DNA from: Eubacteriales bacterium
GTDB taxonomy: Bacteria; Bacillota; Clostridia; Oscillospirales; QAKW01
Assembly: GCA_045586045.1 (NCBI GenBank)
Contig: JAZMZQ010000088.1
Coordinates: 1-44,891 of the forward strand
DNA: 44,891 bases
Direction: 5' to 3'
The translations under genes were made by a program, and so were the position numbers. Of this stretch, positions 523 to 44,279 are shown piece after piece. The notes beneath the pieces are model-generated. The model did no database searches, was not told where the DNA came from, and saw only the letters and a program-made list of their open reading frames with translations. Position 1 is the stretch's first letter. Each line of letters begins with the position of its first letter.

Positions 523-1740
523 TCAGAATTCATTTTTTAAGGAGCGGTCAAAGAGCTGCTCCAAAGCCATAAGGGCATCTGCTCCTTCATAGAGGATGCG
601 ATAGACTGCATCGCAGATCGGCAGCTCAACGCCGTAGGCCTTGGAAAGATTATGAAGAGCTTTGACTGTATAATAGCCCTCCGCCAGTTTGGTATAGGGC
701 GTTTTTTCAACAACGCTCTTGCCAAAGGCTAAATTTTGAGAATGGGCGGAGAAAAGGGTTGCTTCATAATCTCCCAAATGGCAAAGGCCGTAGGCGCTCA
801 TGCTCTTGCCGCCCATGGCGGCGATCAGTTCGGAGATCTCGCGGGTACCGCGTGCCATCAGTGCACCCTTTAGGGAGCTGCGTCCGGCACCCTCCAGCAT
901 TCCCGCGGCAATGCCGATAACATTTTTGGCTGCTGCACCGATTTCATTGCCGATCAGATCGGTGCCGTAATAAAAGCGGATCAAATCGCTGGAGAATAAG
1001 CGAATCAATTCATCTTTCAAAAATTCATCGGTACTATCAATGACCATGCAGTTCGGAACGCCTTTATAAAACTCCTGCACATGCCCCGGCCCCAGCCAGA
1101 CGGCAATGCGATTGCTTTCCGGCAGAATATCGCTCACGACCTGAGAGAGGCGCCGCCCGCCTTCAATTTCCAGCCCCTTCATGCAAAGGACAATCCTTTT
1201 CCCCTCGATACCAAGGGTCAAAAGCGCCTCTGCCACGCTTCGCAGCTGCTGGGCGCTTACCGAGATGATCAAAATGTCCGCCTCTTTCGCGCCCTGCAGA
1301 TCATCGGACAGGACAATGGATTCCGGCAGGCGAATCTGGTCGTTGCGGCGGGTTTTTCGCAGGCGGGCAAGGTTTAGGGAACCTTTGCGGCCATAAAGGC
1401 AGACATGATGACCGATCCGATCCAAATACCAAGAAAGAAAACTGCCCCATCGGCCGCAACCAACGACAAAGACCCGATGAGCCGCCCTTTCCTTTTTTTG
1501 AAAATGGATTTTTTTCCGCTTCCTTAAAGAATCGAGATCTGCTTTTAAGATCTCGTTGATGGTGATATCGTAGATCTCTGAAAGCTTCAGCAGCATGGCG
1601 ATATCGGGAATAGAGGCGCCGGTTTCCCATTTGGAAATTGCCTGACGAGAGACCTGCAAGCGAGAAGCAAGCTCCTCTTGGGTGATCTTATAATATTTTC
1701 TGAGGGCCGAAAGGTAAAGCCCTATCTTTTGATTGTTCAT
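523..1740 (-). CDS. XRE-family HTH domain fused to an NAD(P)H-dependent glycerol-3-phosphate dehydrogenase (GpsA-like) domain
   Basis: N-terminus ITQEELASRLQVSRQAISKWETG (XRE HTH). Then Rossmann VFVVGCGRWGS, MKGLE, GAAAKNVIGIAAGM and HLGDYEATLFSAHSQN, matching GpsA blocks. The ORF opens with GTG at 1749; ATG at 1740 sits 6 nt after GAGGTG and is preferred. Confidence 0.8.
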   Translation of the reverse strand: MNNQKIGLYLSALRKYYKITQEELASRLQVSRQAISKWETGASIPDIAMLLKLSEIYDITINEILKADLDSLRKRKKIHFQKKERAAHRVFVVGCGRWGSFLSWYLDRIGHHVCLYGRKGSLNLARLRKTRRNDQIRLPESIVLSDDLQGAKEADILIISVSAQQLRSVAEALLTLGIEGKRIVLCMKGLEIEGGRRLSQVVSDILPESNRIAVWLGPGHVQEFYKGVPNCMVIDSTDEFLKDELIRLFSSDLIRFYYGTDLIGNEIGAAAKNVIGIAAGMLEGAGRSSLKGALMARGTREISELIAAMGGKSMSAYGLCHLGDYEATLFSAHSQNLAFGKSVVEKTPYTKLAEGYYTVKALHNLSKAYGVELPICDAVYRILYEGADALMALEQLFDRSLKNEF

Positions 1741-1830
1741 TCCATTCACCTCTTTTTTATTTTATCGCAAAAAGGGAAAAGAATCCAGCAACTTTTATTT
1801 GCATCATCCCCCAAAATGCAACCGCAGGCA

Positions 1831-1860
1831 TTTTGATATCATGATATCATGATATCAAAA
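1831..1860. promoter_or_regulatory. Perfect 30-bp palindrome (three GATATC cores), candidate operator
   Basis: TTTTGATATCATGATATCATGATATCAAAA equals its own reverse complement. Lies 91-120 nt upstream of the XRE::GpsA start and downstream of the neighbouring terminator. Confidence 0.5.
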
Positions 1861-1871
1861 TCCATTGAGGA

Positions 1872-1902
1872 AAAGAAAAAAGACCCTAAGAAGGGTCTTT
1901 TT
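1872..1902 (-). terminator. Rho-independent terminator after the GpsA-like gene
   Basis: Stem AAGACCCT / AGGGTCTT, loop AAGA, T-run on the minus strand (also T-rich on plus). Lies 11 nt after the stop at 1913. Confidence 0.7.
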
Positions 1903-1912
1903 GAAGGATGCA

Positions 1913-2965
1913 TTATTTATTATAAGTGAAGGTGAATGCTTCCCAAGGCAGATCGACCGGCTTTTTCTCGGTAATGATCTCGTCCACATGCATGAGCAGG
2001 GGGAAATCGGCGGGGTTCAGCTTACCCAGCTTTGCGGCGGTTTTGATGGCCTTGGCCACCCGCTCTGCAACAACGAGGGATTCGAGGGTTACGCCGTTGA
2101 GCTCCGCTTTGGCTTCGTCGATATTGAGGCCGCGCCCCAAGAGGATGCCGACCAAGCGGGTTCTGCCGCCATAGACGGTAACATAAAGGTCGCCGTAGCC
2201 GACGGACATATTCTCCAAAGTGGCTGCGCCCTGATAATCCAGCAGCTTATACATCTCTTTTACTGCCTGACCGAAGATGGCGGCCTGAGAGTTGAAATGG
2301 AGCTCGCTATCGATGCCATGCTCTTTCTGGTTGAGGCCGATGGTCAGGGCAATGCCGAGGGCATAGCCGTTTTTGAGAGCAACAGCACTCTCGATACCGG
2401 TTACATCGGTGGAGAGGCTGATATGATAATAATCGGTGGCCATGATGGCTTTCATCTTTTCCAGAATCTTCATATCGGTGCCGCAGAAGGCAACCTCCGA
2501 TTGATCGTGGAAGACCAGCTCATAGCTGGTGCAGGGACCGCCGATGGCGTTGATGGAAAGCTTTTTGCCGATCTTTCTCATCATTTCATTCCATACATCG
2601 GGATAGGTCAGCAGTTTGCCGTCCTCCGTATTGACCAAGCCTTTGGTAACGCTCAATACGGGGATCTCTTCGGGAACCTTGGGCAGCACATGAGTGCCAA
2701 ACCAATCCACACCGAAGCTGGATACACCGCCGATGATCATATCGGCGCCTTGGATGGCCTCTTCCATCTCTTCGATCTGATAATACTTCAGCCCTGCGGG
2801 GAAGGGACGGGTAAATTTGGGATGCTGATCGGTGGCCTTGCAAGCCTCGATGATCTCCCGATCCAAGTGGGTGCCTACCAAGCGCACCTCATGCCCATTC
2901 TCTCTTGCGGGGAAAGCAAGAGCAGAGCCCATCATGCCGGAGCCGATAATGGTTACGATTGCCAT
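1913..2965 (-). CDS. NAD-dependent glycerol-3-phosphate dehydrogenase family protein (second GpsA-like paralog)
   Basis: MAIVTIIGSGMMGSALA Rossmann start, TKGL, GGPCTSYEL and GIESAVALKNGYALG blocks parallel GpsA. AAGGAG lies 8 nt upstream of ATG 2965. Confidence 0.7.
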   Translation of the reverse strand: MAIVTIIGSGMMGSALAFPARENGHEVRLVGTHLDREIIEACKATDQHPKFTRPFPAGLKYYQIEEMEEAIQGADMIIGGVSSFGVDWFGTHVLPKVPEEIPVLSVTKGLVNTEDGKLLTYPDVWNEMMRKIGKKLSINAIGGPCTSYELVFHDQSEVAFCGTDMKILEKMKAIMATDYYHISLSTDVTGIESAVALKNGYALGIALTIGLNQKEHGIDSELHFNSQAAIFGQAVKEMYKLLDYQGAATLENMSVGYGDLYVTVYGGRTRLVGILLGRGLNIDEAKAELNGVTLESLVVAERVAKAIKTAAKLGKLNPADFPLLMHVDEIITEKKPVDLPWEAFTFTYNK

Positions 2966-3111
2966 AAGTTTATTCTCCTTTTTGAAAAAGTTCTTGCAAT
3001 TTTTTGCATAAATCCTATAATTAGTCTATAAGAAACCCCAAAAACTGTCAAGAGTTGGCGGCAAAGTTGAAAAAATGAAAGAACTTTTTCAAATTGATAG
3101 GAGAGCGCGGG

Positions 3112-3801
3112 ATGAAAAGAGAAGAAATCATCTTAAATTATTTAGAGGAGCGGCAGTTTGCCTCCATTGCGGAGCTTGCCAAAGCCATTTTTACCAGCGA
3201 AGCCACGGTGCGCCGTTGCGTCAAGGAGCTGGAGCGGCAGGGCTATTTGAAGGCGGTTTATGGCGGAGTGGTACGGGCTGAATATCAAAAGCAGCCGGTC
3301 CCCATCGACCTGCGGGACGGGGAAAACCATGCCGCAAAAGAACGCCTCGGCGCGCGGGCGGCGGCGATGATCGAGGATCATAGCACCATCCTCTTAGATA
3401 GCTCCACCACCGCCCGCCGCATCTGCAAGCATATTGGGGATCGGGAGGGGCTGACCGTGATCACCAGCTCCCTTCGGGTCTGCCGAGAGCTCAAAGACAG
3501 CCCCATTCGGGTGGTCTGCACCGGCGGAACGCTGCTGCCCCGCAGAGAGTGCTTTGCAGGGCATTTTGCGGAAGAGTTTGTAAGCAAAATTAAGGCGGAT
3601 TATTTCTTTTTCTCCGCTCAAGGGCTCTCTCAAAACGGCGATATCACCGATAGCTCGGAGGAAGAGATCGCCCTGCGCAAGGCCATGCTCTCAGCCTCTA
3701 AAAACAGCGTTTTCCTCTGCGATCCTTCCAAAGAGGGAAAAGATTTCCCCTTCACCGTCTGCAATGTTGCGGAATTAACGGCGGTGTTGAAGGATGAATA
3801 A
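3112..3801 (+). CDS. DeoR/GlpR-family transcriptional regulator
   Basis: N-terminal winged HTH (REEIILNYLEERQFASIAELAKAIFTSEATVRRCVKELERQGYL) plus a DeoR C-terminal sugar-phosphate sensor region. ATG 3112 follows GGAGAG; the track start at 3094 is TTG. Confidence 0.8.
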   Translation: MKREEIILNYLEERQFASIAELAKAIFTSEATVRRCVKELERQGYLKAVYGGVVRAEYQKQPVPIDLRDGENHAAKERLGARAAAMIEDHSTILLDSSTTARRICKHIGDREGLTVITSSLRVCRELKDSPIRVVCTGGTLLPRRECFAGHFAEEFVSKIKADYFFFSAQGLSQNGDITDSSEEEIALRKAMLSASKNSVFLCDPSKEGKDFPFTVCNVAELTAVLKDE

Positions 3802-3804
3802 GAG

Positions 3805-3846
3805 AACCCCCACTGTTTCCTGTCGGAAACAGTGGGGGTTTGTTTG
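3805..3846. terminator. Bidirectional terminator between convergent genes
   Basis: 16-bp stem AACCCCCACTGTTTCC / GGAAACAGTGGGGGTT, loop TGTC, T-rich tail. Confidence 0.8.
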
Positions 3847-3866
3847 AATATTATTTAGCCTTCGGA

Positions 3867-4991
3867 TCAGCGACCGCCATAGGGAACATAACCACCGCAT
3901 GTTAGGCCGCTTCCATTGTTTTTTATATGAGAAGGACAGTGCTTGGAATTGGCGCAACTGGCGCAACGGGCAACTCCTGCGGAGCGAGTTCGTGCCTCGG
4001 CGTTTTGGCGATCTCTGCGCTCTTTATCAGCCTGAATTTTAGCATCCCAAGCGGCCTTTTGTGCCAGCTTCTCGGCAGCTTTTGACTGCTCTCTTGCTTG
4101 ATTTTCCATGGCACGATCGTGGGCGGCCTGTTGGCGTTCCATCTGCTCGTTATGACGGCGCTCTTCGGCGGCCTGCTGAGCGAGGATTTGCGTTCTGCGT
4201 TCTTCAGCTGCGATTCTGGCTGCGCGCTCTTTCTCCTCTTGCTCCTCTCGGATTGCCATATTCAGCGCTTCTTTATAGCTATCGGCCCTGCCGGTAGTCA
4301 GCAGGTCGATAATGGGAGAGATTAAGTGATAATATTGCACAGGCATAAAATCATAAGTCTGTGTTTTTTCTAATGTGGCGTCGTAACGCTCGGCCGCCTC
4401 TTTTTTATTAGCAACCCAACAATCTAATGCTTCAGTAGAATCCTTATAGGCCACACTGTGCATCGCTGAAAACAAGATCATGTCATCAAGTGCCTTGGCT
4501 TTTTCACTCTCATAATTTGCAAGACTGTCTTTATAGGCAGCCATGGTTTTATTGAAGGTAGAGAGGGAAGCATCATATTCCTTCTTTCGCTCGGCATACT
4601 TTTTATTCTCTGAGCGGTACATTAAACCGGTGATGACAGAGGCAAAGACGCCGATGGTAGCGAAGGTATTAAGATTCGTATTATGGGTGATGAAATAGAT
4701 CATCAGCAGAAGAACCGTTACCGCAAGAACACCAAAAAAGAGTTTCTTTCTGGACTTCGCAGATCTTTCAAGGCCTGCAAAGTTGCCTTTCTCTGTGGGG
4801 AAAACAGGAAGATTATTAAATACAGATGGGGCAGCCGGAAACTCACCGCGACCGACCTTTGCAAGTTCGATTTTTGTTAATGCCTCTTTTACTGAACCGA
4901 CCTCAATATAATTTTTGATCTCCTGTGCTTCATAGATAAGCGTTTGGAGTTCATAAAGCTGTTCGACGATCTGCTTGTTATCGTTACTCAC
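3867..4991 (-). CDS. Unknown 2-TM coiled-coil protein with an E/R/Q-rich helix and a Cys-rich C-terminal tail ('B1', paralog of 40000-41010)
   Basis: GTG start 4991 overlaps the upstream stop (GTGA); GGAGGTG lies upstream. TM hairpin LFFGVLAVTVLLLMIYFI / FATIGVFASVITGLMY. Blocks GRADSYKEALNMAI and RRHNEQMERQQ; tail CASCANSKHCPSH...LTCGGY. Confidence 0.75.
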   Translation of the reverse strand: MSNDNKQIVEQLYELQTLIYEAQEIKNYIEVGSVKEALTKIELAKVGRGEFPAAPSVFNNLPVFPTEKGNFAGLERSAKSRKKLFFGVLAVTVLLLMIYFITHNTNLNTFATIGVFASVITGLMYRSENKKYAERKKEYDASLSTFNKTMAAYKDSLANYESEKAKALDDMILFSAMHSVAYKDSTEALDCWVANKKEAAERYDATLEKTQTYDFMPVQYYHLISPIIDLLTTGRADSYKEALNMAIREEQEEKERAARIAAEERRTQILAQQAAEERRHNEQMERQQAAHDRAMENQAREQSKAAEKLAQKAAWDAKIQADKERRDRQNAEARTRSAGVARCASCANSKHCPSHIKNNGSGLTCGGYVPYGGR

Positions 4992-5539
4992 TGCTTTTCA
5001 CCTCCTACGCGGGCATAATCAAAGAGCCATACCAATTCTTTCTGGATAAAGGAAAGCGATGGGTCAATGCTGAAGACTTCGGGGTCCACCACATAGGATT
5101 CGTCGTGTTCGATAAATTGATGCTTCAGCTCATCCAGCTTATTCAAATAGGCATTTTCAGTGAAAAGCTTGATGTCGTAGATCCATTCGGTGGTGTTCAT
5201 GGGATTGGCGATCTCATGCAGGATAGACATCAAAATGCAGAAGGTTTTTTCATTAGAGTGGGGGCGTTTTGCATTTTTAAGATATGCCACATAAGGGTTC
5301 TTTTTGGGATCGATAAGGTCCGGATATTTTGCATAAGGAAGATCGGATGCATGTACTCCATCGGCCAAAAGAAATGCGATCTTAAAAAGAAGATTATCCT
5401 TTTCCAACGCCTCTACGGCGATGGTCCTTAAGTAGGAATAGATAAAGATAGAACGTTCTTCCAAAGTTGTGAGCTTTTGATAGCTTTCTACACCCTCGGG
5501 CGAGAAAAACCATTGGGAATCTTTTTTGATTAAATCCAT
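4988..5539 (-). CDS. Unknown soluble protein ('A1', paralog of 41000-41593)
   Basis: 183 aa with no TM segment. Shares LEERSIFIYSYL, YPDLIDPKKNPYVAYL and FCILMSILHEIANP....WIYD blocks with A2. Its stop overlaps the B1 start. Confidence 0.75.
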   Translation of the reverse strand: MDLIKKDSQWFFSPEGVESYQKLTTLEERSIFIYSYLRTIAVEALEKDNLLFKIAFLLADGVHASDLPYAKYPDLIDPKKNPYVAYLKNAKRPHSNEKTFCILMSILHEIANPMNTTEWIYDIKLFTENAYLNKLDELKHQFIEHDESYVVDPEVFSIDPSLSFIQKELVWLFDYARVGGEKQ

Positions 5540-5555
5540 GGTTTATCGACCTTTC

Positions 5556-6065
5556 TTATTTTTTAGCGTCCCACATATTGTGGGCTTTGAGAAAAGCAAT
5601 AAATTTTTGCTCACTTTCCTTGTCAATGTGATCTACAAAGGTAAAGATAAAGGTGCGGATGTGATGGTATTTATTATCATTGTTTTGCTCGGTTGTACCA
5701 TCGCTGTTGATCTGAGTGTTGGATTTTAAGCCGATTTGCTTTTTGAGCAGTGCCACTATGAATTTATCGTCCTTCGGGGTGGTTAATTCGATGGTGCAGG
5801 ATTCGCCGTCTGCAAAATCAAGAGAAACGGTTACTATATCGTCGGTAGAATCTACATAATGCAGCATCGTTGCTTCACTGCCGATGTTGTAACGACCGGT
5901 GGTTTCCTTGCCATCCAGAAAAATAATTTGAGTAAACTTATCAACAGTCGTTACCTTGTTGCTCGGATCGTTGCCCAGAGCAACCTGATTACCCTTATGC
6001 TTTCCTTCGGTAACATTACCGTACTTGGTGGCAAGAGTAGCACCCAATTTTTCCATAAATCCCAT
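5556..6065 (-). CDS. Hypothetical protein, first gene of the A1/B1 operon (no counterpart in the second module)
   Basis: 169-aa ORF. AGAGG lies 6 nt upstream of ATG 6065. It ends 17 nt before A1. No recognisable motif. Confidence 0.6.
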   Translation of the reverse strand: MGFMEKLGATLATKYGNVTEGKHKGNQVALGNDPSNKVTTVDKFTQIIFLDGKETTGRYNIGSEATMLHYVDSTDDIVTVSLDFADGESCTIELTTPKDDKFIVALLKKQIGLKSNTQINSDGTTEQNNDNKYHHIRTFIFTFVDHIDKESEQKFIAFLKAHNMWDAKK

Positions 6066-6185
6066 TTTATACCTCTTTCTGCCGAGTCGGTCGGCGGTTG
6101 ATTTTTTGTATGAAAGAAACTACTTTCATATGATTAGTCTTATTTTATCAAAGGTATTTTGGAAAGTCTTATGCTGAGAGCATAG

Positions 6186-6214
6186 TTGAAAAAAATTGTC
6201 GATTATGGTATGCT
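6186..6214 (+). promoter_or_regulatory. Sigma-A-type promoter for the HTH / LRR / kinase operon
   Basis: TTGAAA (6186-6191), 17-nt spacer, TGgTATGCT extended -10 (6206-6214). This places the track's TTG start at 6186 inside the promoter. Confidence 0.5.
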
Positions 6215-6248
6215 GATAGCAAAGTATGTAAAAATAGTGAGGAAAAAG

Positions 6249-6671
6249 ATGAGTAAGGATACATCTAAGATTGTGGAAGAGCTGGGCCTTTGCTCGGATT
6301 TTAAGACATTTTATCATGAGAACAACGATTATATGATGCAAGAGAGTCTTTCTGATCTTTTGGCGCAGCTGATGGAGAAAAAAGGGCTGAAGAAGACAAA
6401 GGTCATCAAGGCGTCGGAGCTCTCGGAGGTCTATGCCTATCAGATCTTCTCGGGCCTTCGAGTTCCCGAGCGCAAAAAGCTTTTGAGCCTTGCGGTAGGG
6501 ATGGAACTGAATATTGAGGAGACCCAGAAGCTTTTGAGGTGCGCGGGGTTTGCTCCTTTATATGTAAAGCTGCCTTTCGACAGCATAATCCTTTACGGCC
6601 TTTGCAAAGGCCTTTCGGTGGTGGAGATCAACGATCTACTCTTTGAATATGAGCAGGAGACCTTAGGATGA
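6249..6671 (+). CDS. XRE-like HTH protein
   Basis: ATG 6249 follows GAGGAAAAAG. HTH-like core [49 protein letters not shown]. The stop overlaps the next start (ATGA). Confidence 0.65.
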
Positions 6672-7660
6672 GAGAATGTCCTTATTGCGGAGCAAAAATT
6701 GAAGAAAATGCCAAGATCTGCCTCTACTGCATGGAGGAGCTGGAGGAAAAGACCATCCTCGGCAGCAGAGTGGTCGCGCCATGGCGCAGATGGATCCTGC
6801 CGACTGTTTTTTCAATGGTAATCCTTTTGCAGCTGGCGGCGATTTTGATGCTGCTGCCCCATCGGGAGCAGATAGTTGCACCACCCTCGGAGGAGGCAAT
6901 GAAGCAGGAGGAAGAGGCGAAGGTGGATCAGGTTGTGGAAAAGGAAGATTCTGCGCCGGAAAAGGAAGAACCTGCGCCGGAAAAGGAAGAACAGGGCGAA
7001 GCGGAGAAGAGTGATGGGGATAAAGAAGAAGAGAAAAAGCCGACCTCTTCCGGCGGCAGTACCTCTAAGCCCGATCCCGATCCCGATCCCGAGCCCGAAC
7101 CTGAACCGGAGCCGGAACCGGAGCCGGAACCCGAACCCGAGCCTGAACCCGAACCCGAGCCTGAACCGGAGCCTGAACCGGAGCCCGAGCCGGCACCCTA
7201 TCAGGCACCGGAATATACATGGATAGAAATTGGAGATATTGTTGCTCCTGTATATCTGGATTTTCTTAGAAACAGTGTAGAGATTACGGGAGTGAAGACT
7301 CCCGCTTCCGATGGCATTTATCGGATTCCTGATACCATTGAGGGAAAGCGAGTATCCTCGATTGCAAGGGATGCCTTTAAGGGGGAGGGCATCGCCGAAA
7401 CGGTCAAGCAGATCTATCTGCCGGAGAACTTAAAGCAGGTTGGTGGCAACGCCTTTTCGGAATGTTATAATCTGACAGATCTTTATAAGACCGGCGATAC
7501 TCTTGCTATGGAATATAATGTTTTTCCGCCTCTGGTGCGCAGAACCGGACCCATCACCTTCCATTGTTCGCGTCTTTGCAACTATCCGGGGGATGGGACT
7601 CTCTATTGGCCGCGTGTAGAGCAACAATATAATGTTTTATATGAGGAGTGGAACGGATGA
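6668..7660 (+). CDS. Zinc-ribbon / single-TM / E,K-rich + (PD)3(PE)n linker / BspA-type leucine-rich-repeat protein
   Basis: [18 protein letters not shown] zinc ribbon; [24 protein letters not shown]; about 40 aa of strict P-D/P-E dipeptides. C-terminus [20 protein letters not shown]...[24 protein letters not shown] resembles BspA-like LRRs. Confidence 0.7.
7070..7192 (+). repeat. Hexanucleotide (CCN-GAN) tract, about 20 units, encoding the (PD)3(PE)n linker
   Basis: Direct reading: cccgat x3, then cccgag/cccgaa/cctgaa/ccggag variants in frame. Perfect at protein level, synonymously scrambled at DNA level. Confidence 0.9.
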
Positions 7661-8367
7661 TGGAGCAGATGGAAAGCAAGCTCAATACCCTTTGGGAGCA
7701 TTTTTCGAGGGTTTCCATCCTTTCCGATAAAAATGGCTGCAAGACCCTGCGAATCCGCCATCAGAAGACCGAGCGGGATTATATTTTGCATCAGCTTTCG
7801 GAGCCAAACCCTGTCTATGAGACCCTTTGCGCGCTTCGTCATCCTAATCTTCCGGCAGTCTATGAGATATTTTACTGCCAAGACGGCATGCTGGTTTTGG
7901 AGGAATATATTGAAGGTCTCAATGCGGCTCAGGTGGCCGAGAGCGGCCGCTACCGTAAGCGGGGCGCCAAAAAGGTGGCGGAAGGGATCTGCCGAGGGCT
8001 GATGGTTCTTCATGGAGAGGGCTTTATCCATCGGGATATCAAGCCGGAGAATGTGATGATCGGGAAGGATGGCAGGGTGGTGCTGATCGATTTCAACGCC
8101 GCCCGAAGAAAAAGCCAAAAATCCCGCGACACCGTCATTATGGGCACAGTTGGATTTGCCCCGCCGGAGCAGTTAGGGCTTTCCCAAAGCGATGAGCGGG
8201 TCGATATCTATGCGGTGGGTGTGCTGCTGAACATTTTACTCACCGGCCAATATCCCACCGAGGAGCTGGCGGGCGGGCGTCTTGGGCGGATCATTCGCCG
8301 CTGCACCAGAGTGCGGGCAAGGGAGCGCTATCAATCGGCAAGAAGGCTTTATTGGGCGTTGAAATAA
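7657..8367 (+). CDS. Stand-alone Hanks-type Ser/Thr protein kinase domain, atypical motifs
   Basis: [12 protein letters not shown] catalytic loop; LIDFNAA (DFN instead of DFG); GFAPPE for APE; no clear GxGxxG loop. ATG 7657 overlaps the upstream stop (ATGA), with GAGGAG 8 nt upstream. Confidence 0.75.
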
Positions 8368-8404
8368 AAATGCGGGAGAAAATTTATTTTTCTCCCGCAT
8401 TTTT
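8367..8404 (+). terminator. Terminator hairpin of the kinase operon (copy 1 of a duplicated hairpin)
   Basis: 16-bp stem AAAATGCGGGAGAAAA / TTTTCTCCCGCATTTT, loop TTTAT, starting at the stop codon. An identical hairpin recurs at 8691-8727. Confidence 0.7.
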
Positions 8405-8442
8405 AGCGTGTCAAAAACCTCCGCAGGAGTTTTTGACACGCT
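8405..8442. repeat. Long inverted repeat built from the TTTTTGACACGCT junction motif
   Basis: AGCGTGTCAAAAACCTCC gca GGAGTTTTTGACACGCT; about 17-bp arms with one bulged C. Confidence 0.8.
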
Positions 8443-8577
8443 GGGAGACTCTCAAAAAAGAGTGCAGATTTCGTCGATCCGTTCTCGTCGGCGTACATAG
8501 GTACGGTAGAGGGCGGATCGGCGGAAAGCAGAAAAATTCAATCGAAATCCGCATTACTATGCGGATTTCTTCCTTTT
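8433..8577 (+). repeat. Structured repeat 'unit B', copy 1 (candidate small RNA with its own terminator-like hairpin)
   Basis: About 95% identical by hand alignment to 25188-25327. 13-bp helix 8472-8484 / 8511-8523 enclosing CGTAC-atag-GTACG. Terminal stem AAATCCGCA / TGCGGATTT (8545-8568), then a T-rich tail. Confidence 0.8.
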
Positions 8578-8590
8578 GAAGGAACAGAGG

Positions 8591-8690
8591 GGAAAAAGTA
8601 GCAACCTCCTTCTCCTTTGCTATCTTAAAGAAGCGGGAAATCTTTTTTGTTTTTTCTTTTTCTGCGGTCGGTGCCTTTTTTGACAGTCTG
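8591..8690 (+). repeat. Diverged 'unit A' repeat plus conserved junction TTCTGCGGTCGGTGCC-TTTTTTGACAGTCTG
   Basis: The 3' 35 nt match the junctions at 16660-16684 and 25165-25193 / 25413-25445 almost exactly. The upstream part is only about 65% like unit A by eye. Confidence 0.5.
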
Positions 8691-8727
8691 AAAATGCGGG
8701 AGAAAATTTATTTTTCTCCCGCATTTT
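8691..8727 (+). repeat. Second copy of the 8367-8404 hairpin, just upstream of the glnS promoter
   Basis: AAAATGCGGGAGAAAATTTATTTTTCTCCCGCATTTT, identical to copy 1. Confidence 0.9.
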
Positions 8728-8734
8728 ATTAGGA

Positions 8735-8763
8735 TTGATTTTTTTGATTTTCTGCGATATAAT
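8735..8763 (+). promoter_or_regulatory. Sigma-A-type promoter of glnS
   Basis: TTGATT (8735-8740), 17-nt spacer, TATAAT (8758-8763). It overlaps the first in-frame ATG (8766), which argues for the ATG at 8793. Confidence 0.55.
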
Positions 8764-8792
8764 AAATGGAGATTATAGGAAAGGCATTAAAA

Positions 8793-10475
8793 ATGGAAGA
8801 GAAAAGACAAGAGATTTCTAATTTTATAACCACCTTCATTAAAGAGGATCTGGCAGCAAATCCCGAGATGAAGATTCATACCCGCTTTCCCCCCGAGCCC
8901 AATGGCTATCTCCATATCGGCCATTGCAAGGCCATGGCCATCGATTTCGGCATGGCGCGGCGCTTCGGCGGGATCTGCAATCTCAGAATGGACGATACCA
9001 ACCCCGCCAAGGAAGAGACGGAGTTTGTAGATGCCATTCAAGAGGATATCCATTGGCTGGGCTTCGATTGGGGGGATCGCTTCTTCTATGGGTCCGATTA
9101 TTTTGAGAAGGACTATGAATTTGCGGTGCGGCTCATCAAGAAGGGCCTAGCCTATGTCTGCGAGCTGAGCCCCGAGGAGATGCGGGATCCCAAATATTGC
9201 GGGGATGTCAATCATCCTGCCGTCTCCCCTTGGAGAGATCGGCCCATCGAGGAGAGCCTTGATCTTTTTGAGCGGATGAAAGCGGGCGAATTCCCCGATG
9301 GGAAATATACCTTGCGAGCAAAGATTGATCTTGCCTCCGGCAATTTCTGGCTCCGCGATCCTGCCATTTATCGGATTCGCCATGTGGAGCATCATCGCCA
9401 AGGGTCCAAATGGTGCATCTATCCCCTTTATGATTTTGCCCATCCCATTCAGGATGCGCTGGAAGGGGTTACCCACTCCCTTTGCGATATCAACTATGAG
9501 ATCCATCGCCCCCTTTATAACTGGGTGATTGAGAATGTATTTGAAGAAGGGGAGCTTGCCTATAAGGGCTTCCCCCGCCAGATTGAATTTGCAAGAATGA
9601 ATCTCACTTATACCGTCCTTTCCAAGCGTTTTCTTCGCGGCTTGGTCGAGGATGGGGTGGTAGATGGCTGGGATGATCCTCGGATGCCCACCCTCTGCGG
9701 CCTGAGAAGAAGAGGCTATTCCGGCGAGGCAATCCTGCGCTTTGTAGAAGGGGCGGGGGTTGCCAAGAGCGAGAATCTCATCGATATCCGCCAGCTGGAG
9801 GCCTGCATCCGCGATGAGCTGAACGATACGGCCTATCGGCGGATCGCCATTCAGAAGCCCATCAAGGTGGTGCTGACCAACTATCCTGAAGATCAGAAGG
9901 AATTCTTTGATCTGCCCAATCATCCCCAAAAGCCGGAGCTGGGCACCCGCCCCGTTCCCTTTACTAAAGAGCTTTATATCGACGAGAGCGATTTTGCGGA
10001 AGTGCCCCCCTCGAAATTCTTCCGCATGAAGCCCGATGGCGAGGTGCGGCTGATGGGCGCCTATCTGGTTACCTGCAATGAGATCATTAAAAATGAAGAT
10101 GGCTCTATCAAGGAGCTTCATTGCACCGCCGATCTGGAGACCCGCAACGGCATGCCGGCCGATGGTCATAAGGTGAAGGGCACCATCCATTGGCTCTCTG
10201 CCGAGAATGTAATCCCTGCCACCCTGCGGCTTTATGAGCAGCTGACCACGCTGGAGGATCCTGCCGCTCTGCCCGAGGGCAAGACCTATACCGATTTCCT
10301 CAACCCCGAATCCTTGACGGTTGTGGAAGGGGCGCTTTTGGAGGCCAATCTTGCGGAGGCGAAAGCCGGGGAGAAATTCCAGTTTGTGCGGGATGGCTAC
10401 TATGTGAAGGATACCAAATATGAAAACACCTTCAACCGAGTAGTCGGCTTGAAAGATAGCTTCCCGAAGAAGTAA
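8793..10475 (+). CDS. glnS: Glutaminyl-tRNA synthetase
   Basis: RFPPEPNGYLHIGHCKA (HIGH motif), LTYTVLSKR (KMSKS-type motif), and GlnRS-like sequence along the full length. AGGAAAGG lies upstream of ATG 8793; the ORF opens at 8766. Confidence 0.9.
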   Translation: MEEKRQEISNFITTFIKEDLAANPEMKIHTRFPPEPNGYLHIGHCKAMAIDFGMARRFGGICNLRMDDTNPAKEETEFVDAIQEDIHWLGFDWGDRFFYGSDYFEKDYEFAVRLIKKGLAYVCELSPEEMRDPKYCGDVNHPAVSPWRDRPIEESLDLFERMKAGEFPDGKYTLRAKIDLASGNFWLRDPAIYRIRHVEHHRQGSKWCIYPLYDFAHPIQDALEGVTHSLCDINYEIHRPLYNWVIENVFEEGELAYKGFPRQIEFARMNLTYTVLSKRFLRGLVEDGVVDGWDDPRMPTLCGLRRRGYSGEAILRFVEGAGVAKSENLIDIRQLEACIRDELNDTAYRRIAIQKPIKVVLTNYPEDQKEFFDLPNHPQKPELGTRPVPFTKELYIDESDFAEVPPSKFFRMKPDGEVRLMGAYLVTCNEIIKNEDGSIKELHCTADLETRNGMPADGHKVKGTIHWLSAENVIPATLRLYEQLTTLEDPAALPEGKTYTDFLNPESLTVVEGALLEANLAEAKAGEKFQFVRDGYYVKDTKYENTFNRVVGLKDSFPKK

Positions 10476-10581
10476 GGGCTGTTAAAATTGCCCGAACCGC
10501 AAAGGGCAAAAAGGACTTGTTTCAGTATATCATAAGCCTTGTTTTCTGTTTTTTGTTTGCGGATTATCAATGAAAAAGGAA

Positions 10582-10616
10582 GAAACCCATCGAAAAGTCG
10601 ATGGGTTTCTTTTTTT
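10582..10616 (+). terminator. glnS terminator
   Basis: GAAACCCATCGA aaag TCGATGGGTTTC followed by T7. Confidence 0.85.
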
Positions 10617-10628
10617 AATGGCGCTCTA

Positions 10629-11459
10629 TTAAAATCTTCGCTTGAAAAAGCGGATGTTGCTGATCCGCTCTTCATGATGAAGGGCGGGATCATGAGGGAG
10701 CGTGGTGGCAGGCTCGATATATTGCACCGCTACCCCTTCCTCGGAAAGGATCAACTCGCAAAAGCCCCAAAGCTGCTCTTGGGGTTTGCCGGTATAGGAA
10801 TAATTTCCATCATGGTAGATGGAGACCTCTGCACCGTATTCCGAAAGATCGGTGATTTTATTAAGATGATCATGGCCGCAGAATAAAAGGGTGATCCGCT
10901 TTTCCTTTTGGAGGAAATCGAAGAATTCTTGGGGCTCCTTGGTCAGTTCAAACCAGTGGGAGAGCAGGATAACGGGAGCATCGGGATAAAGCTCCATCTG
11001 TTCCGTGATAAAGGGAAGGTCGGTGGGGGTATAGGTACCGTCGCTATGCTCCGTGGGGTCTAAGTTTCCTGCAAAATTATCGCAGCCGATAAAGAGCCAT
11101 CCGCCCACTTTTTTTGCCCATTTGCGGGAGTTTCCGGTGAGCTCTTTCCATTTTTCTTCTCCATACTGCTCATGGTTGCCCGCCAGCATCAGATAGGGGG
11201 CGGGCAGGCGGGATGCAAATTCTTTGATAAAGCGGGCGGTATAGCTTTTGCCCTCGTTGAGATAGCAGCCCTTGATATCCCAAGCCCAGAAATCCAGAGA
11301 ATAATCTCCCAACATGAAAACATGGCTATAAGGGCGATTTACATAAGTTTTTTCCATGGCAAAAAGCCATTCCTCCAGCCGCTCTTCGCCGGTGGGGCCA
11401 TACCAATCTCGATGGCAAAGATGCAGATCGGAGCAGATGATAATGCGGTGATCTTTCAT
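10629..11459 (-). CDS. Calcineurin-like metallophosphoesterase
   Basis: IICSDLHLCH, MLGDYSLDF, LAGNHE and FCGHDH metal-ligand blocks. GGGAGGAA lies upstream of ATG 11459. Confidence 0.75.
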   Translation of the reverse strand: MKDHRIIICSDLHLCHRDWYGPTGEERLEEWLFAMEKTYVNRPYSHVFMLGDYSLDFWAWDIKGCYLNEGKSYTARFIKEFASRLPAPYLMLAGNHEQYGEEKWKELTGNSRKWAKKVGGWLFIGCDNFAGNLDPTEHSDGTYTPTDLPFITEQMELYPDAPVILLSHWFELTKEPQEFFDFLQKEKRITLLFCGHDHLNKITDLSEYGAEVSIYHDGNYSYTGKPQEQLWGFCELILSEEGVAVQYIEPATTLPHDPALHHEERISNIRFFKRRF

Positions 11460-11515
11460 AAAAATTCCTCCCTTGGTATTAAGTATATTTTAAGAAATAA
11501 TGAAAGGAATGTCAA

Positions 11516-12274
11516 TTATCTTCTTTTTCGAAAATCCATGGGAGAACACCCTGCTTTTTTCTTGAAAAGACGGGAAAAATAAGCCGACTCCATGCCACAT
11601 TGTTCGGCAATTTCGCCAATGGAGAGGGCAGATTTTCGGAGCAGATTTTTAGCAAGCTCTATTCGTTTGGCAAGAATATATTCATTGATCCCTTGCCCGA
11701 AATGAGCAGAGAAGGCGCGATGGAGTGTGTTTTTGGATAGATGAAAGCGATTGGAGAGATCCTCAACCCGAAGTCTTTCGCTAAGATGCTCATGAATAAA
11801 GGCGGCAAGTTCTTCTGCCAAGGAACTGATTTTTTCATGGATGGCGCTATGGAAAAGGATATGGGGAAGAAGGTTATAAAGAGATTTGATTTGCTCTTCG
11901 CCCAGCTGAGGAAGGGCCTCATAAAGAGGATCGTTTCTTTGGGGGGATCGCTCTGACCGCACCTGACCCATCAAGATAAAGCCCGCCACGGAATCTCCTT
12001 TCATGATGGGCATCGCGGAATCATATAAACCTTGATGGCATAAATGATGCTCTAATTTTTTGGTTTTACTGCATTTTTCCAAGAGAGCCGCATCGCTTTT
12101 TATGCATTTCTCGGCAGATCCGTTTTTTTGAATACAAGCGCAATAGTTTCCCTCTTGGCGGAAGCCCACCAAAAGGTGCCCCTTGGCATCCAGCAAGGAG
12201 ATGGAAATGCCGGTCAGCCGATGAATATCCCCAATCAGCTGCTGTAATAGATGAAGATCATAGGTAAATTCCAT
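11516..12274 (-). CDS. AraC-family regulator with an N-terminal PocR-type sensor domain
   Basis: Cys-containing PocR-like region (GNYCACIQKNGSAEKCIKSDAALLEKC). C-terminal AraC HTH (LSIGEIAEQCGMESAYFSRLFKKKAGCSPMDFR). Confidence 0.75.
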   Translation of the reverse strand: MEFTYDLHLLQQLIGDIHRLTGISISLLDAKGHLLVGFRQEGNYCACIQKNGSAEKCIKSDAALLEKCSKTKKLEHHLCHQGLYDSAMPIMKGDSVAGFILMGQVRSERSPQRNDPLYEALPQLGEEQIKSLYNLLPHILFHSAIHEKISSLAEELAAFIHEHLSERLRVEDLSNRFHLSKNTLHRAFSAHFGQGINEYILAKRIELAKNLLRKSALSIGEIAEQCGMESAYFSRLFKKKAGCSPMDFRKRR

Positions 12275-12405
12275 AAGCCCCTCCTTTTTGCATTATCATA
12301 GCACATTTGGTTCAAAAATGCAAGAAAATGGGAGGATATTGAATGGCAAAAACCGAAAAAGCGTGGTATAAATAAAGCGTAACAAAAAAAGAGAAGGAAA
12401 GATTG

Positions 12406-13251
12406 ATGAACGCACTTATTTTGAGTTCCATTATTTTAGGCTGCGCTGCCCAAGATCTTTTAAGAAAAGTTTTTGCCAACAAACGGGGGAGCCATGGCGC
12501 TTTTTTCTATGCCGCCATCAGCACCTTTTTTGCATTGCTTTTCTTTGCGGCAGGAGGCATTGGAAGGTTTCCTCTTGGGCTTTTGCCGTATGCTTTGGCC
12601 TTTGGCCTCTCTTATGGGGTGGCAGGGTTTTGCGCTGTATGGGCGGTGGGCTGCGGCCCCTTATCCCTTACCAGCCTGATGATCTCTTATTCTTTGATGC
12701 TGCCCACCCTTTATGGCTTGATCTTTTTGAAAGATCCTATGGGGAAAGGATTTATAGCAGGGCTTCTTTTGCTGGTACTTTCGCTATGGTTGGTCAGCAA
12801 AAAGGATGAGAAGGTAGAATTTTCCTTTCGCTGGGTGATCTTAACGTTTTTTGCCTTTTTGGGCAATGGTGGATGCTCCATCTTTCAGAAGATGCAGCAG
12901 GTTGCCTTTGAGGGGGCTTATAAAAACGAACTGATGGTTCTCGCCCTCGGCATCGCCCTTCCCATTCTTTTGGGAATCGCTCTTATTAGCGAGAAGGGCG
13001 AATGGAAAGAAAATTTTAAGGCAGGTACCCTTCCTGCCGCATTGGCAGGTCTTGCCAATGGTGTGGTGAATCTTTTGGTAATGATCCTTTCAGGCAGAAT
13101 GGCGGTTTCGGTGATGTTTCCGCTGATCTCTGCAGGAGGGTTATTGGTCGTATTCTTCGTCTCTCGCTTCATTTTCAAAGAAAATCTGACCAAACGGCAG
13201 ATGCTGGGCTTCTTTTTTGGAATGGGGTCCATTGTCTTATTGAGCATATAG
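12406..13251 (+). CDS. Multi-pass membrane transporter, DMT/EamA-like
   Basis: About 10 hydrophobic helices throughout. ATG 12406 follows GAAGGAAAG (the track start at 12403 is TTG). Divergent from the AraC gene. Confidence 0.5.
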   Translation: MNALILSSIILGCAAQDLLRKVFANKRGSHGAFFYAAISTFFALLFFAAGGIGRFPLGLLPYALAFGLSYGVAGFCAVWAVGCGPLSLTSLMISYSLMLPTLYGLIFLKDPMGKGFIAGLLLLVLSLWLVSKKDEKVEFSFRWVILTFFAFLGNGGCSIFQKMQQVAFEGAYKNELMVLALGIALPILLGIALISEKGEWKENFKAGTLPAALAGLANGVVNLLVMILSGRMAVSVMFPLISAGGLLVVFFVSRFIFKENLTKRQMLGFFFGMGSIVLLSI

Positions 13252-33857: not shown

Positions 33858-33978
33858 CACTTGCGTAAGAGCATATTTTCAATAAAGATGCCTATTTTCG
33901 GGGTTCCTGCGCCGATGAGCTTGCCGTTTTGCAAAATGGGGCTGCCGCTCACGGGTGTGTCCATATAGGGCCAACAAA
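33857..33978 (-). pseudogene. spoIVB 3'-end remnant D (most decayed) plus shared junction
   Basis: Minus strand reads [30 protein letters not shown]. 24 nt shorter than the live gene end. Positions 33952-33977 match the junction next to remnant C (24 of 29 by hand). Confidence 0.75.
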
Positions 33979-39733: not shown

Positions 39734-39752
39734 AATGAAGATATGGTATATC

Positions 39753-39897
39753 TTATGAAGCCGAGAGCATGTTTTCGATAAAGATGCCGTAGCCGCGGGT
39801 GGGGTCGGAGATCAAGACATGGGTTACTGCGCCGACGATTTTGCCATCCTGCAAAATCGGGCTGCCGCTCACGAGTGTGTCAATATAGGACCAACAT
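39753..39897 (-). pseudogene. spoIVB 3'-end remnant C plus shared junction
   Basis: 39753-39871 is about 93% identical by hand to 42964-43082 and reads [38 protein letters not shown]. 39872-39897 is the junction shared with remnant D. Confidence 0.85.
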
Positions 39898-39936
39898 ATT
39901 TTTATATCATTCATTTTCAATTTATCCTTTAAACGC

Positions 39937-39999: not shown

Positions 40000-41010
40000 T
40001 TACTTAGGTCTGTATGCCGGGCAGGAGTAACATGCAAAACCACGATTAGAACATTTACAAGCACAGGATCTGGCTCTAATTCCATTAATGCGTTCTCTTT
40101 CTCTACGGCTCTCTTTTTCAGCTTCTGCAGCGTCTTTTGCCATTTGTTGCTGTTGTTGCTCCATTTGCCTATTGTGACGCCTCATTTCTTCCATTTGCTG
40201 TTCCATAGCCTCTTGGCGAAGCCGCTCTTCTTCTCGCCGTTGTTCCTCTTCTCGTTCTTTGCGGTCGTCTTCAATGGCTAAATTAAGCGCATCTTTCAAA
40301 TTGTCGGCTCTACCGCTTTGCAAAGAAGAAAGTATATTTTTCGTCAAATAATGATATTCACTTGATAAAATGTCAAGGCCGGTTATTTGTTGCTCAATTC
40401 CCACAAGTTGCTGCTTTGCGTTATTTATATTTGCTTGGTATTCTTCTCTTGCAGCGACAAAATCATTGTGACAAGAATTCTGGAGTTGAATAAATTTTGC
40501 CATGCTGTCTTTTGCTTGGGCTTTTTCTTTTTCAAATCGACTGAGGTTTTGTCTAAAACTGTCCATCGTCTGATTGAACTTTTCAACAGATTCATCATAG
40601 ATTTTCTTTTTCTCAAGATAAATGCGTTTTAAGCCTTTACATAAGTATAGCAAAACCGCTGTGCCGACAATTCCAACAGCACCAAGACTTGATAAAAAAG
40701 AAGCTTTTGTTATCAAGTAAAGAAGAATCGATATTATTCCACCGCCGGCGAACAGAATAAGTATTTTTTTCAATTTCTCATATTTAAGTTCATTTGGCAA
40801 ATAAATGTCTTTATCGATCGGAAAAAGCGGCATGATGGAGTAGACAGAGGGCACCATTGGACCATCGCCTCTAACACGACGTATTTCATTGAGTCTTTTC
40901 TTTGCGTCATCCAATTCGCCGTATTGAATGCGATATTCCAAATCACTTTTTTTATCCAACAGCTCTTCAAGTTTTTTTAATTTATTAATCACTTCTTTAT
41001 TATTTAACAT
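40000..41010 (-). CDS. Unknown 2-TM coiled-coil protein with an E/R/Q-rich helix and a Cys-rich tail ('B2')
   Basis: TM hairpin [18 protein letters not shown] / [16 protein letters not shown]. Blocks [14 protein letters not shown] and [12 protein letters not shown]; tail [18 protein letters not shown]. The start overlaps the A2 end by 11 nt. Confidence 0.75.
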
Positions 41011-41593
41011 CTTTCCGTTCTCTCCAGTTTTGTAAAATAAAAAGGTATGCTATTTCTGCTTGAATTTCGCGCAAAGATTCATCGATATCGTATGCTGTGG
41101 TATTAATAATTTCGCCGCCTAAGTTTTCGATGAATTTTTTGCCCAACTCTTCTGTTTTGACTTTGTATTTTGCGTCTCCCAAAGATGGATCATTATCAAA
41201 AAGGTGCTCATCATATATCCAAGAGTCATTATCATAGGGATTAGCAATGCCATGCAAAATTGATAGTAGTATACAGTACACACCCTCGGTATTATCCGCT
41301 TCTTGAACCTTGCTGATATACGCAATAAAAGGGTTTTTGTTGGCATCAATAAGGGCAGGATATGACGAATACTCCGTATTTGATGTGCTGATACTGTTTG
41401 ATAGCAAAAATGCCATTTTAAACAAGAATGTTTTTATGTTGTTTTGCGAAGTTCGCCTTAGGTTTTTTTCGGTGATGCGTAAAAGATACGAATAAAGGAA
41501 AACCGAACGTTCTTCAAGATTTTTGCATTCATCGAACGCTTGTTTTCCGGATGACGATAAAAACCATGCGGCATCATTAGTAATAAGTTCCAT
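41000..41593 (-). CDS. Unknown soluble protein ('A2')
   Basis: ATG 41593 with AAGGAG 8 nt upstream (the ORF opens at 41692). Blocks LEERSVFLYSYL, YPALIDANKNPFIAYI and YCILLSILHGIANP....WIYD match A1. Confidence 0.75.
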   Translation of the reverse strand: MELITNDAAWFLSSSGKQAFDECKNLEERSVFLYSYLLRITEKNLRRTSQNNIKTFLFKMAFLLSNSISTSNTEYSSYPALIDANKNPFIAYISKVQEADNTEGVYCILLSILHGIANPYDNDSWIYDEHLFDNDPSLGDAKYKVKTEELGKKFIENLGGEIINTTAYDIDESLREIQAEIAYLFILQNWRERKDVK

Positions 41594-41954: not shown

Positions 41955-41981
41955 AAAAAGCAGACCCAAGGGTCTGCTTTT
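41955..41981. terminator. Bidirectional terminator between the XRE gene and spoIVB remnant B
   Basis: AAAAGCAGACC caag GGTCTGCTTTT. Confidence 0.75.
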
Positions 41982-41982
41982 A

Positions 41983-42135
41983 CTATACTGCGCTGGCCAG
42001 CATATTTTCGATGAAGATGCCGTAGCCGGCGGTGGGGTCGGAGACCAAGACATGGGTTACTGCGCCGACGATTTTGCCGTTTTGCAAAATCGGGCTGCCG
42101 CTCATGCCCTGCACAATGCCGCCGGTAGCGGTACA
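41983..42135 (-). pseudogene. spoIVB 3'-end remnant B
   Basis: About 88% identical by hand to 42961-43110. Reads [48 protein letters not shown], closed upstream by an in-frame TGA. Confidence 0.85.
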
Positions 42136-42901: not shown

Positions 42902-42960
42902 GCAAAACACCTGCCTTTATGTAGAGTATACCACACGTATAGGTGTGGTGCAACTCTTTT

Positions 42961-44184: not shown

Positions 44185-44279
44185 CAACACAAATGATTTG
44201 TGTTGAAAAGAAGAGGCTTGGGAGTACAAATGATTTGTGTTGAAAAGAAAAGGCTTGGGAATACAAATGATTTGTGTTG
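44185..44279. repeat. 37-bp tandem repeat (about 2.5 units), each unit carrying an ACAAAT-g-ATTTGT palindrome, upstream of spoIVB
   Basis: ACAAATGATTTGTGTTG starts at 44189, 44226 and 44263. The first copy extends to the 21-bp palindrome CAACACAAATGATTTGTGTTG. Confidence 0.9.

Follow-up and report, generated by a model that had tools for sequence, protein, structure and literature searches.

A Conserved Six-Gene Cassette of Gut Oscillospirales Combining a Putative Divergent Operator, an LRR Protein, a Kinase and Three Undescribed Protein Families

We analysed a 44,891-nt stretch of DNA from a Eubacteriales bacterium (assembly GCA_045586045.1, contig JAZMZQ010000088.1), hereafter the window, to whose full length all coordinates refer. 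A first-pass annotation, made from the sequence alone, had described in it two copies of a gene pair, A and B: module 1, which comprises X-A1-B1 and, in our usage, also the divergent genes H, LRR and KIN, and module 2, which comprises A2-B2. We favour, at somewhat better than even confidence, the view that positions 3805-8403 form a single self-contained cassette, in which two back-to-back operons are governed by one common regulatory switch (Table 1). The evidence comes from a palindrome conserved in the region between the operons and from the recurrence of the six-gene arrangement in other genomes.

Results

A Putative Operator between Two Divergent Operons

The two operons diverge from a gap of 183 bp (6066-6248), with a guanine-plus-cytosine (GC) content of 0.328 compared with 0.485 for the whole window. 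Mechanical open reading frame (ORF) calling places the start of H at 6186, giving 161 aa; the true start is almost certainly M22 at 6249, which yields 140 aa, the length of all homologs, and reproduces the 183-bp control region. The window carries two operator-type sites, O1 and O2, where 0.04 would be expected by chance. On the side of the H promoter, O1 abuts the -35 element and O2 covers the -10 element and the start. O1 lies 22 nt before the X-A-B -10 box, and the centre of the palindrome is therefore placed near -42 from the X-A-B start and near -44 from the H start, both starts being predicted ones. The X-A-B leader holds a perfect palindrome or hairpin, TATGAAAG-N6-CTTTCATA (6109-6130), and a GC hairpin (6079-6097) directly ahead of the X ribosome-binding site; an Rfam search of the control region returned no RNA element at E<=1.

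The operator is conserved together with H. A 15-bp palindrome, TATGCTGnCAGCATA, is found 50-95 nt upstream of all 27 H genes that we identified, with one mismatch at two of them (the H paralog of locus L024, and L028). Of the first 33 loci, 20 carry a single perfect palindrome (TATGCTNNNAGCATA) and L011 carries two, with one more in L028. Loci that have no H gene also have no palindrome, with L031 as the sole exception. The conserved block reads ...AGCATACCAnAttCGACAAAAnTTTTCAAC, then TATGCTGnCAGCATA, then AGACTTT-N15-TATAAT, and at 19 of 25 palindromes TAnAAT stands exactly 22 nt downstream toward X/A, with no -35 element. In L013 and L028, H-LRR-KIN is upstream of X/A but co-directional with it; here a second palindrome followed by N22 and TATAAT lies directly upstream of X/A, and the H-proximal copies have no outward -10 box. 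These two loci act as natural controls, and their layout supports a putative operator common to both operons. Furthermore, an independent search of metagenomes with the operator gave 12 contigs, 10 of which have H beside the site. The divergent operon of an XRE-like gene, LRR and a kinase with a common control region, as first proposed, is thus supported by the conserved operator. One of the other two contigs, L051, has its match inside an aminotransferase coding gene, which was judged to be due to chance.

H is the best-conserved protein of the cassette, with a mean column identity of 81%, compared with 43% for B and 38% for A, and its N- and C-terminal extensions around the helix-turn-helix (HTH) are conserved as well. 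The H family profile matches the XRE protein 3op9 in the PDB (E=0.0027, H residues 28-93). The palindrome at the promoter of H itself occupies the position predicted for an XRE regulator that controls its own expression.

Most relatives carry an extra 86-aa XRE gene, R, between H and X/A (e.g., L004, 4359-4619). R lies at the equivalent position in L009, L011, L012, L015, L016, L019, L020, L022, L027 and L029, and likewise in L036, L038 and L042; it is absent from the window, L002, L023 and L024. The nucleotide sequence of R is unusually conserved, and R has its own palindromes (GTGAATAnTATTCAC), which flank a TTTACA-17-TAAAAT promoter that faces X/A. Extra H palindromes also occur beside giant LRR proteins (1002 and 1122 aa) in L024 (1454-5565) and L028 (243-3611), which share their loci with a standard cassette; the one in L024 is accompanied by the H paralog.

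Recurrence of the Six-Gene Arrangement

Synteny was examined by six-frame ORF calling and iterative hidden Markov model (HMM) searches on all fetched loci, and by independent gene calls with Pfam labels. About 20 independent loci have the arrangement KIN<-LRR<-H / X->A->B, and of the 18 genome loci with at least 4-5 kb of upstream flank, 13 contain H-LRR-KIN. A is directly upstream of B wherever the locus leaves room, and X in most loci comes right before A and in five right after B. The junctions are tight, with A and B separated by -11 to +17 nt in 35 of 37 cases, H and LRR by -4 to +10 nt in 26 of 27, and LRR and KIN overlapping or at most 4 nt apart in 22 of 24. Whether X, the kinase or LRR recur with A/B elsewhere, a question posed by the first-pass annotation, is answered positively by the conserved synteny. 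X, which has no counterpart in module 2, is a real extra gene. The same recurrence reverses the polarity of the earlier proposal that module 1 is an expanded copy: the six-gene form is canonical (13/18 loci) and module 2 is the reduced one. From these sequence comparisons, the six-gene cassette appears as the ancestral, widespread architecture.

All 25 genome loci belong to uncultured gut Oscillospirales (Acutalibacteraceae, Faecousia, Fimenecus and Oscillospiraceae). The flanks are housekeeping genes that differ in each genome inspected, such as gpsA/DeoR and glnS in the window, SMC/GuaA and MetH in L036, and the spoIIIA operon and acetate kinase in L038. Cassette GC tracks that of the host over 0.33-0.58, usually 1-5 points below it, which suggests that the cassette is long-resident and not recently transferred. 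A1 and B1 had no tblastn match among 50,697 phage records and B1 had none among 72,556 plasmids, and both a B-profile scan and an operator scan of IMG/VR were empty; these searches give no evidence of a phage or plasmid origin.

Layout of the Cassette in the Window

All three ORFs of the minus-strand operon X, A1 and B1 are present as first annotated. The coordinates of these and the other features are listed in Table 1.

Table 1. Features of the six-gene cassette (module 1) in window coordinates
Feature	Position	Strand	Description
Intrinsic terminator 3' of B1	3805..3840	-	16-bp stem, 4-nt loop, T-rich tail
B1	3867..4991	-	374 aa, membrane protein
A1	4988..5539	-	183 aa, soluble, all-alpha; family and fold undescribed
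X	5556..6065	-	169 aa, soluble; family undescribed
Predicted 5' leader of X-A-B mRNA	6079..6130	-	two hairpins
Predicted X-A-B -10 box	6142..6147	-	TAAAAT, exactly 22 nt past the operator, as in homologs; no recognisable -35
Operator O1 (putative)	6170..6184	unstranded	TATGCTGAGAGCATA, perfect palindrome
H-LRR-KIN promoter	6186..6214	+	TTGAAA, 17 nt, TG-n-TATGCT
Operator O2 (putative)	6209..6223	unstranded	TATGCTGATAGCAAA, degenerate copy of O1, 39 bp from O1
H	6249..6671	+	140 aa, probable diverged XRE/Cro-CI-type HTH regulator
LRR	6668..7660	+	330 aa, Zn-ribbon, one transmembrane segment, stalk, probable BspA-type LRR domain
KIN	7648..8367	+	239 aa, soluble Hanks-type Ser/Thr kinase domain
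Hairpin terminator at the end of KIN	8367..8403	unstranded	identical copy at 8691-8727

The A1 stop and the B1 start overlap in GTGA behind a GGAGG ribosome-binding site, an arrangement of translational coupling that we verified along with the 11-nt overlap of A2 and B2. X and A1 are 16 nt apart and have separate Shine-Dalgarno sequences; in the other operon, the H stop overlaps the LRR start in ATGA and the LRR and KIN genes overlap by 13 nt. The B1 terminator stands back to back with the end of a convergent DeoR gene.

The suggestion that module 1 occupies an AT-rich islet of its own holds for X (GC 0.414), A1 (0.418) and the promoter region but is overstated for the rest, with B1 at 0.47, LRR at 0.52 and KIN at 0.54; the dip over 4.5-6.5 kb is modest (0.41-0.43, compared with 0.50-0.53 on both sides). 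We found no flanking direct repeats or insertion scars bracketing module 1. On its right side, a perfect 37-nt hairpin repeat, AAAATGCGGGAGAAAATTTATTTTTCTCCCGCATTTT, is present in two copies (Table 1), one straight after the KIN stop and the other just ahead of the glnS promoter, and the 287 bp that separate them hold a further hairpin (8544-8569). The repeat could represent a terminator that was duplicated, or else a scar left by insertion at the cassette's right edge. On the other side, the window carries two adjacent minus-strand GpsA-like (glycerol-3-phosphate dehydrogenase) genes (523-1749 and 1913-2965); by eye, the 408-aa GpsA-like protein seems to bear an N-terminal XRE-type HTH.

A, B and X Belong to Undescribed Families

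A1 and A2 are 39% identical over 185 aa (E=2e-47) and B1 and B2 are 28% identical over 280 aa (E=2e-40), and the alignments indicate that both are pairs of true paralogs. The similarity is not confined to low-complexity coil: the B1/B2 alignment takes in the N-terminal domain, the transmembrane (TM) hairpin and the middle domain in addition to the coiled coil. A coiled-coil artefact is ruled out, as the alignments span N-terminal, TM and middle domains and include invariant non-coil motifs seen in 82 B sequences.

In these 82 sequences, from which B conservation was taken, the conserved elements are a PSVxxxxPxFP loop, the TM hairpin, an EYYHL motif, EERRHNxxMERQQ, an invariant GR(A)D turn inside SGRADxYKEALNxAIxEE of the cytoplasmic helical bundle, and a C-terminal CxxC-x5-C-x8-12-CGGYxP, whose four cysteines probably form a zinc knot and whose last spacer is x12 in B1. 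The B1 motifs quoted earlier, namely the TM hairpin, GRADSYKEALNMAI, RRHNEQMERQQ and the Cys tail, are all in its translation. The AlphaFold model of B (predicted local distance difference test, pLDDT, 93) runs from an N-terminal helix through the hairpin and the helical bundle to a single 106-residue helix (239-344) and the Cys knot. Topologies of B and LRR were derived from hydrophobicity and the positive-inside rule; for B, they predict a TM hairpin that is N-in/C-in, with both large parts cytoplasmic. A is modelled as an all-alpha domain (pLDDT 86; predicted template modelling score 0.83). X is recognised by a conserved N terminus, MGFMEK...ATKYGxVTEGKH.

None of A1, A2, B1, B2 and X has a match at curated threshold in Pfam-A, NCBIfam, PHROGs or PADLOC, and the same is true of the remote A-like and B-like proteins; the source databases name none of the A and B proteins and none of the remote relatives. 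A word-seeded search of 5.8 billion proteins returned 83 B clusters and 15 A clusters, none named or with a Pfam domain. With the A profile, HMMER was run exhaustively over 1.84 billion representatives and gave 185 proteins at E<=0.001, 44 of them at E<=1e-30; about 140 of the 185 are remote relatives, which have in common the first ~90-110 residues of A. In Foldseek, the B model found generic coiled coils only (best E=0.27) and the A model found no neighbour (best E=3.2 in the PDB and 2.6 in BFVD), and the profiles had no match among PDB sequences (best E=0.09 for A, 0.21 for B). A full-text literature search found no paper on the cassette, only an unrelated one. By these sequence and model comparisons, A, B and X are undescribed families, and A is predicted to have an undescribed fold. 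The resemblance of A-B to a type II toxin-antitoxin pair is limited to gene order and overlap; A lacks a DNA-binding domain, B, at 374 aa, is a membrane protein, and neither matches a toxin-antitoxin family.

The LRR Protein and the Kinase

The conserved Zn-ribbon of the LRR protein, CPxC...CLYCM, is N-terminal and predicted to be cytoplasmic. It is followed by a single TM segment, a variable stalk rich in Pro and Glu and, at the C terminus, a probable BspA-type LRR domain that is predicted to be extracellular. The window protein reaches 20.6 bits against PF13306 (LRR_5), compared with a cut-off of 27.7, and its orthologs have precomputed PF13306 matches, the one in L038 being unmarked and the one in L004 weak. 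The (PE)n / (PD)n stalk is encoded by a run of 6- and 12-nt repeats (7056-7211) and differs in length and sequence among orthologs; its length could change by slippage.

KIN is a bare Hanks domain of about 235 aa with no TM segment (Pkinase, E=1.7e-31, 110 bits, cut-off 31.7). HRD(I/V)KPEN, DFN and SPE are conserved in 18 family members, and the catalytic loop is intact. GxGxxG is absent: the consensus there is LSDKNxCxVLRLRHK, the Pfam match begins at profile position 50, and the position of the beta3 lysine (VAIK) is uncertain. KIN may be an atypical kinase or a pseudokinase. Matches to named kinases are confined to the core: PD-T4-6 in PADLOC at E=4e-33 (generic kinase core only, residues 60-204), MADS6 in NCBIfam at 84 bits against a cut-off of 460, and the best NCBIfam match, PknB_PASTA_kin, again over the kinase core only, at 110 bits against an equivalog cut-off of 450. 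The gene context also differs from that of MADS6, PD-T4-6 and Stk2 systems.

Module 2 and Remote A-B Pairs

In module 2, A2 (41000-41593) overlaps B2 (40000-41010) by the 11 nt 41000-41010. The ORF call for A2 is 230 aa long and encloses a perfect 12/12 sigma-70-type promoter, TTGACA-17-TATAAT (41670-41642, minus strand), so that A2 probably starts at M34 (41593) and has 197 aa. With this promoter, expression of module 2 looks constitutive, and the operator scan of the window found no H operator there.

Three copies of a 153-nt segment of the spoIVB 3' end (39746-39898, 41979-42131 and 42957-43109) bracket two tandem mini-insertions, one with Fic and one of ~2.1 kb with A2-B2 only, and this array suggests a reusable integration hot spot. 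Module 2 looks recently acquired, given its GC of 0.37 compared with 0.49 in the flanks and its flanking repeats. No copy of the 153-nt segment lies near module 1, in line with the first-pass observation, and module 1 would accordingly have arrived by a different route. A further 51-nt spoIVB-end fragment with 90% identity lies at ~33.9 kb (fragments 33870-33951), and near the 5' end of the spoIVB ORF call two tandem copies of a 37-nt unit, 95% identical, occupy 44189-44262.

The two modules have no similarity at the DNA level. B1 is 47% identical to a protein of another genome and only 28% identical to B2, and A2 is 51% identical to A of L011 and 39-40% to A1, as anticipated for old paralogs or independent acquisitions. 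A recent duplication giving rise to module 2 is ruled out by the 28-39% identity, the closer relatives elsewhere and the lack of DNA similarity. Existing alone as module 2, the A-B pair is an autonomous core.

Remote A-like genes followed by B-like genes bearing GRAD...KEA(I/L)NL are found in L034, where the pair adjoins an integrase, in L041, where it stands alone with Fic nearby, and in L040 and L054. L054-L057 (about 1500-12900) represent a prevalent mobile element with a XerC/D-like integrase and TnpV, whose eight-gene operon encodes a 707-aa unknown protein, an SPFH/Band_7_1 and Zn-ribbon protein and remote A-like and B-like genes. A-B is paired with SPFH/Zn-ribbon genes in L031 and L040 too. 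The partner proteins of remote pairs have no PADLOC match. In L042 (2822-3556), the place of X-A-B under the H/R control region is taken by a gene for a 244-aa protein that has a TM hairpin and a Zn-ribbon, and in L031 (7389-8111) a TM-hairpin/CxxC...CxC...CxxC Zn-ribbon protein of this 240-244-aa kind directly precedes A-B, a placement suggesting that output genes are exchangeable. Fusions of the A-like domain are little informative, comprising one FtsK-gamma winged helix (L040), one weak SH3 and two with TM and extracellular domains; the latter (P0153 and P0187) would place A at the membrane face.

Discussion

Its biochemical role aside, we read the cassette, with slightly more confidence than doubt, as a CI-like switch, H, that connects input from a split LRR receptor and kinase to a membrane-anchored coiled-coil output. 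By analogy with lambda CI at P_RM, an H dimer at O1 would activate X-A-B in a class II manner, and H would limit its own operon via O2. The LRR protein and soluble KIN, encoded together, would make up a split receptor kinase reporting a cue from outside the cell or at its surface, and through phosphorylation would change how active H is, or else X, A or B. B would serve as the membrane anchor, its N-terminal domain, bundle, ~10 nm stalk and Cys4 tip facing the cytoplasm according to the predicted topology; translational coupling would fix the A:B ratio, and A, perhaps with X, would dock on the cytoplasmic scaffold of B.

Parts of this scheme resemble known systems. As in the lambda CI system at P_RM/P_R, a small HTH protein is encoded beside palindromic operators between back-to-back promoters, one operator lies near -42 of a promoter without a good -35 (the geometry of activation), and a second lies over the other promoter (the geometry of auto-repression). 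Unlike CI, H has no recognisable CI-type C-terminal dimerisation or peptidase domain, its HTH match is below threshold, the cassette has two operators rather than three and is not on a phage, and DNA binding by H is predicted here from sequence. The PASTA kinases (PrkC, StkP, Stk1) likewise couple an extracellular sensor to a cytoplasmic Hanks-type core, whereas in the cassette sensor and kinase are separate polypeptides, the sensor being a probable BspA-type LRR with a Zn-ribbon and no PASTA repeats, and KIN is ~235 aa, with neither a TM segment nor a glycine loop. With an LRR outside the cell, a single TM segment and a Ser/Thr kinase inside, the combination is functionally analogous to the LRR receptor kinases of plants and animals; no homology is implied, and the cassette receptor is split over two overlapping genes and is probably of the bacterial LRR_5 BspA type. 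B joins a membrane anchor to a very long cytoplasmic helix as ZorA of Zorya does, but it has two TM helices and no MotA/ExbB domain, and the sole ZorA match (E=0.0035) is that of a remote B-like protein over the coiled coil. KIN resembles PD-T4-6 / Stk2 in its core (E=4e-33), but only in the generic part, and PD-T4-6 is a single-gene system.

Several observations weigh against this account. We infer binding of H to the palindrome solely from co-occurrence and geometry, and the match of H to Pfam HTH_31 (E=1.6e-4, 22.3 bits) is below the 27-bit gathering cut-off. The sequence does not discriminate activation from repression. Where R is present, as in most relatives, it has its own operators and the O1 promoter reads antisense through it; control there is more complex than in the window. 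L031 has the palindrome but no H gene on its contig. KIN may be a pseudokinase, because it has no recognisable glycine loop and its beta3 lysine is uncertain. Furthermore, all relatives come from uncultured metagenome-assembled genomes or metagenomes.

The biological role is a separate matter, on which two other readings bear. The cassette could be an anti-phage or conflict system, a reading that we consider doubtful and that is compatible with the regulatory anatomy proposed above. A-B would then be an abortive-infection-type membrane effector, in which the TM hairpin of B disrupts the membrane, A restrains B, a sensor module (LRR and kinase here, SPFH/Zn-ribbon proteins in remote relatives) arms it and the XRE protein controls it. 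Such a role would fit the modular exchange of partners around a constant A-B core and the coupling of a small upstream gene to a downstream membrane protein. It would also fit the mobility of the core by itself, given that the 2.1-kb A-B insertion and a Fic insertion form a tandem at a repeated att-like site, the window Fic protein matching the candidate defence family PDC-S04 at 7e-67, and the remote pairs found on an integrase/TnpV element, by an integrase, by a type I restriction-modification methylase and near Fic, with one genome holding two A-B copies. Yet A, B, X and the remote cargo have no PADLOC match, no relatives came from the phage, plasmid or IMG/VR searches, and at every inspected locus the six-gene cassette sits among housekeeping genes, with no defence islands and with GC that tracks the host. 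H is unusually conserved for a fast-evolving conflict system, a predicted extracellular LRR is atypical for sensing phage components, and the matches of the KIN core to the PD-T4-6 and MADS6 models, which might otherwise favour defence, are generic Hanks-domain ones.

Some of the same facts speak for sensing and maintenance of the cell envelope or surface, which we hold to be a little more doubtful still. PASTA kinases detect surface cues, and LiaI-LiaH and YdjGHI-PspA are membrane anchors that recruit soluble partners. With similar logic, LRR and the kinase would detect a wall, host or neighbour cue, and X-A-B would be a scaffold on the cytoplasmic face of the membrane that protects or remodels the envelope. 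The extracellular LRR, borne on a long Pro/Glu stalk, together with the Zn-ribbon inside the cell and the kinase partner, suits this role, as do the long-resident, host-matched GC with housekeeping flanks, the high conservation of H and the scaffold-like B, which has no enzymatic motif. Three independent remote A-B pairs lie beside SPFH/Band_7_1 and Zn-ribbon proteins, the class to which YdjI of B. subtilis, the membrane linker of PspA, belongs; this link, however, comes from remote relatives only. Patchy distribution and multiple mobile copies would be unusual for envelope housekeeping, the cassette encodes no PspA/IM30, LiaH or similar partner, and the fold search with B gave generic coiled-coil noise.

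A broader proposal, unlikely to be right and about as doubtful as the envelope role, is that A-B, together with X, is the effector core of a class of modular, membrane-anchored systems that has gone unrecognised in gut Firmicutes. The sensors of this class would be swapped, from a split LRR receptor and Ser/Thr kinase in Oscillospirales to SPFH/Zn-ribbon proteins carried elsewhere by mobile elements. In the six-gene cassette, the split LRR receptor kinase would sense a surface event, such as phage adsorption or attack by a neighbour, and the CI-like activator would turn this signal into induction of a cytoplasm-facing, new-fold coiled-coil membrane complex.

What is new here is the A-B-X module and the cassette as a whole, while the regulatory and sensor parts resemble known kinds. 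A, B and X, three of its six proteins, are members of families that no database describes, and the fold of A, modelled with confidence, has no structural neighbour. These undescribed proteins are wired to recognisable signalling parts via an unusually well conserved operator, which makes the system directly testable. If LRR and the kinase act together, they would constitute a bacterial receptor kinase split over two polypeptides and feeding a switch like that of a phage repressor, in abundant uncultured gut Oscillospirales, of whose regulatory circuits very few have been characterised.

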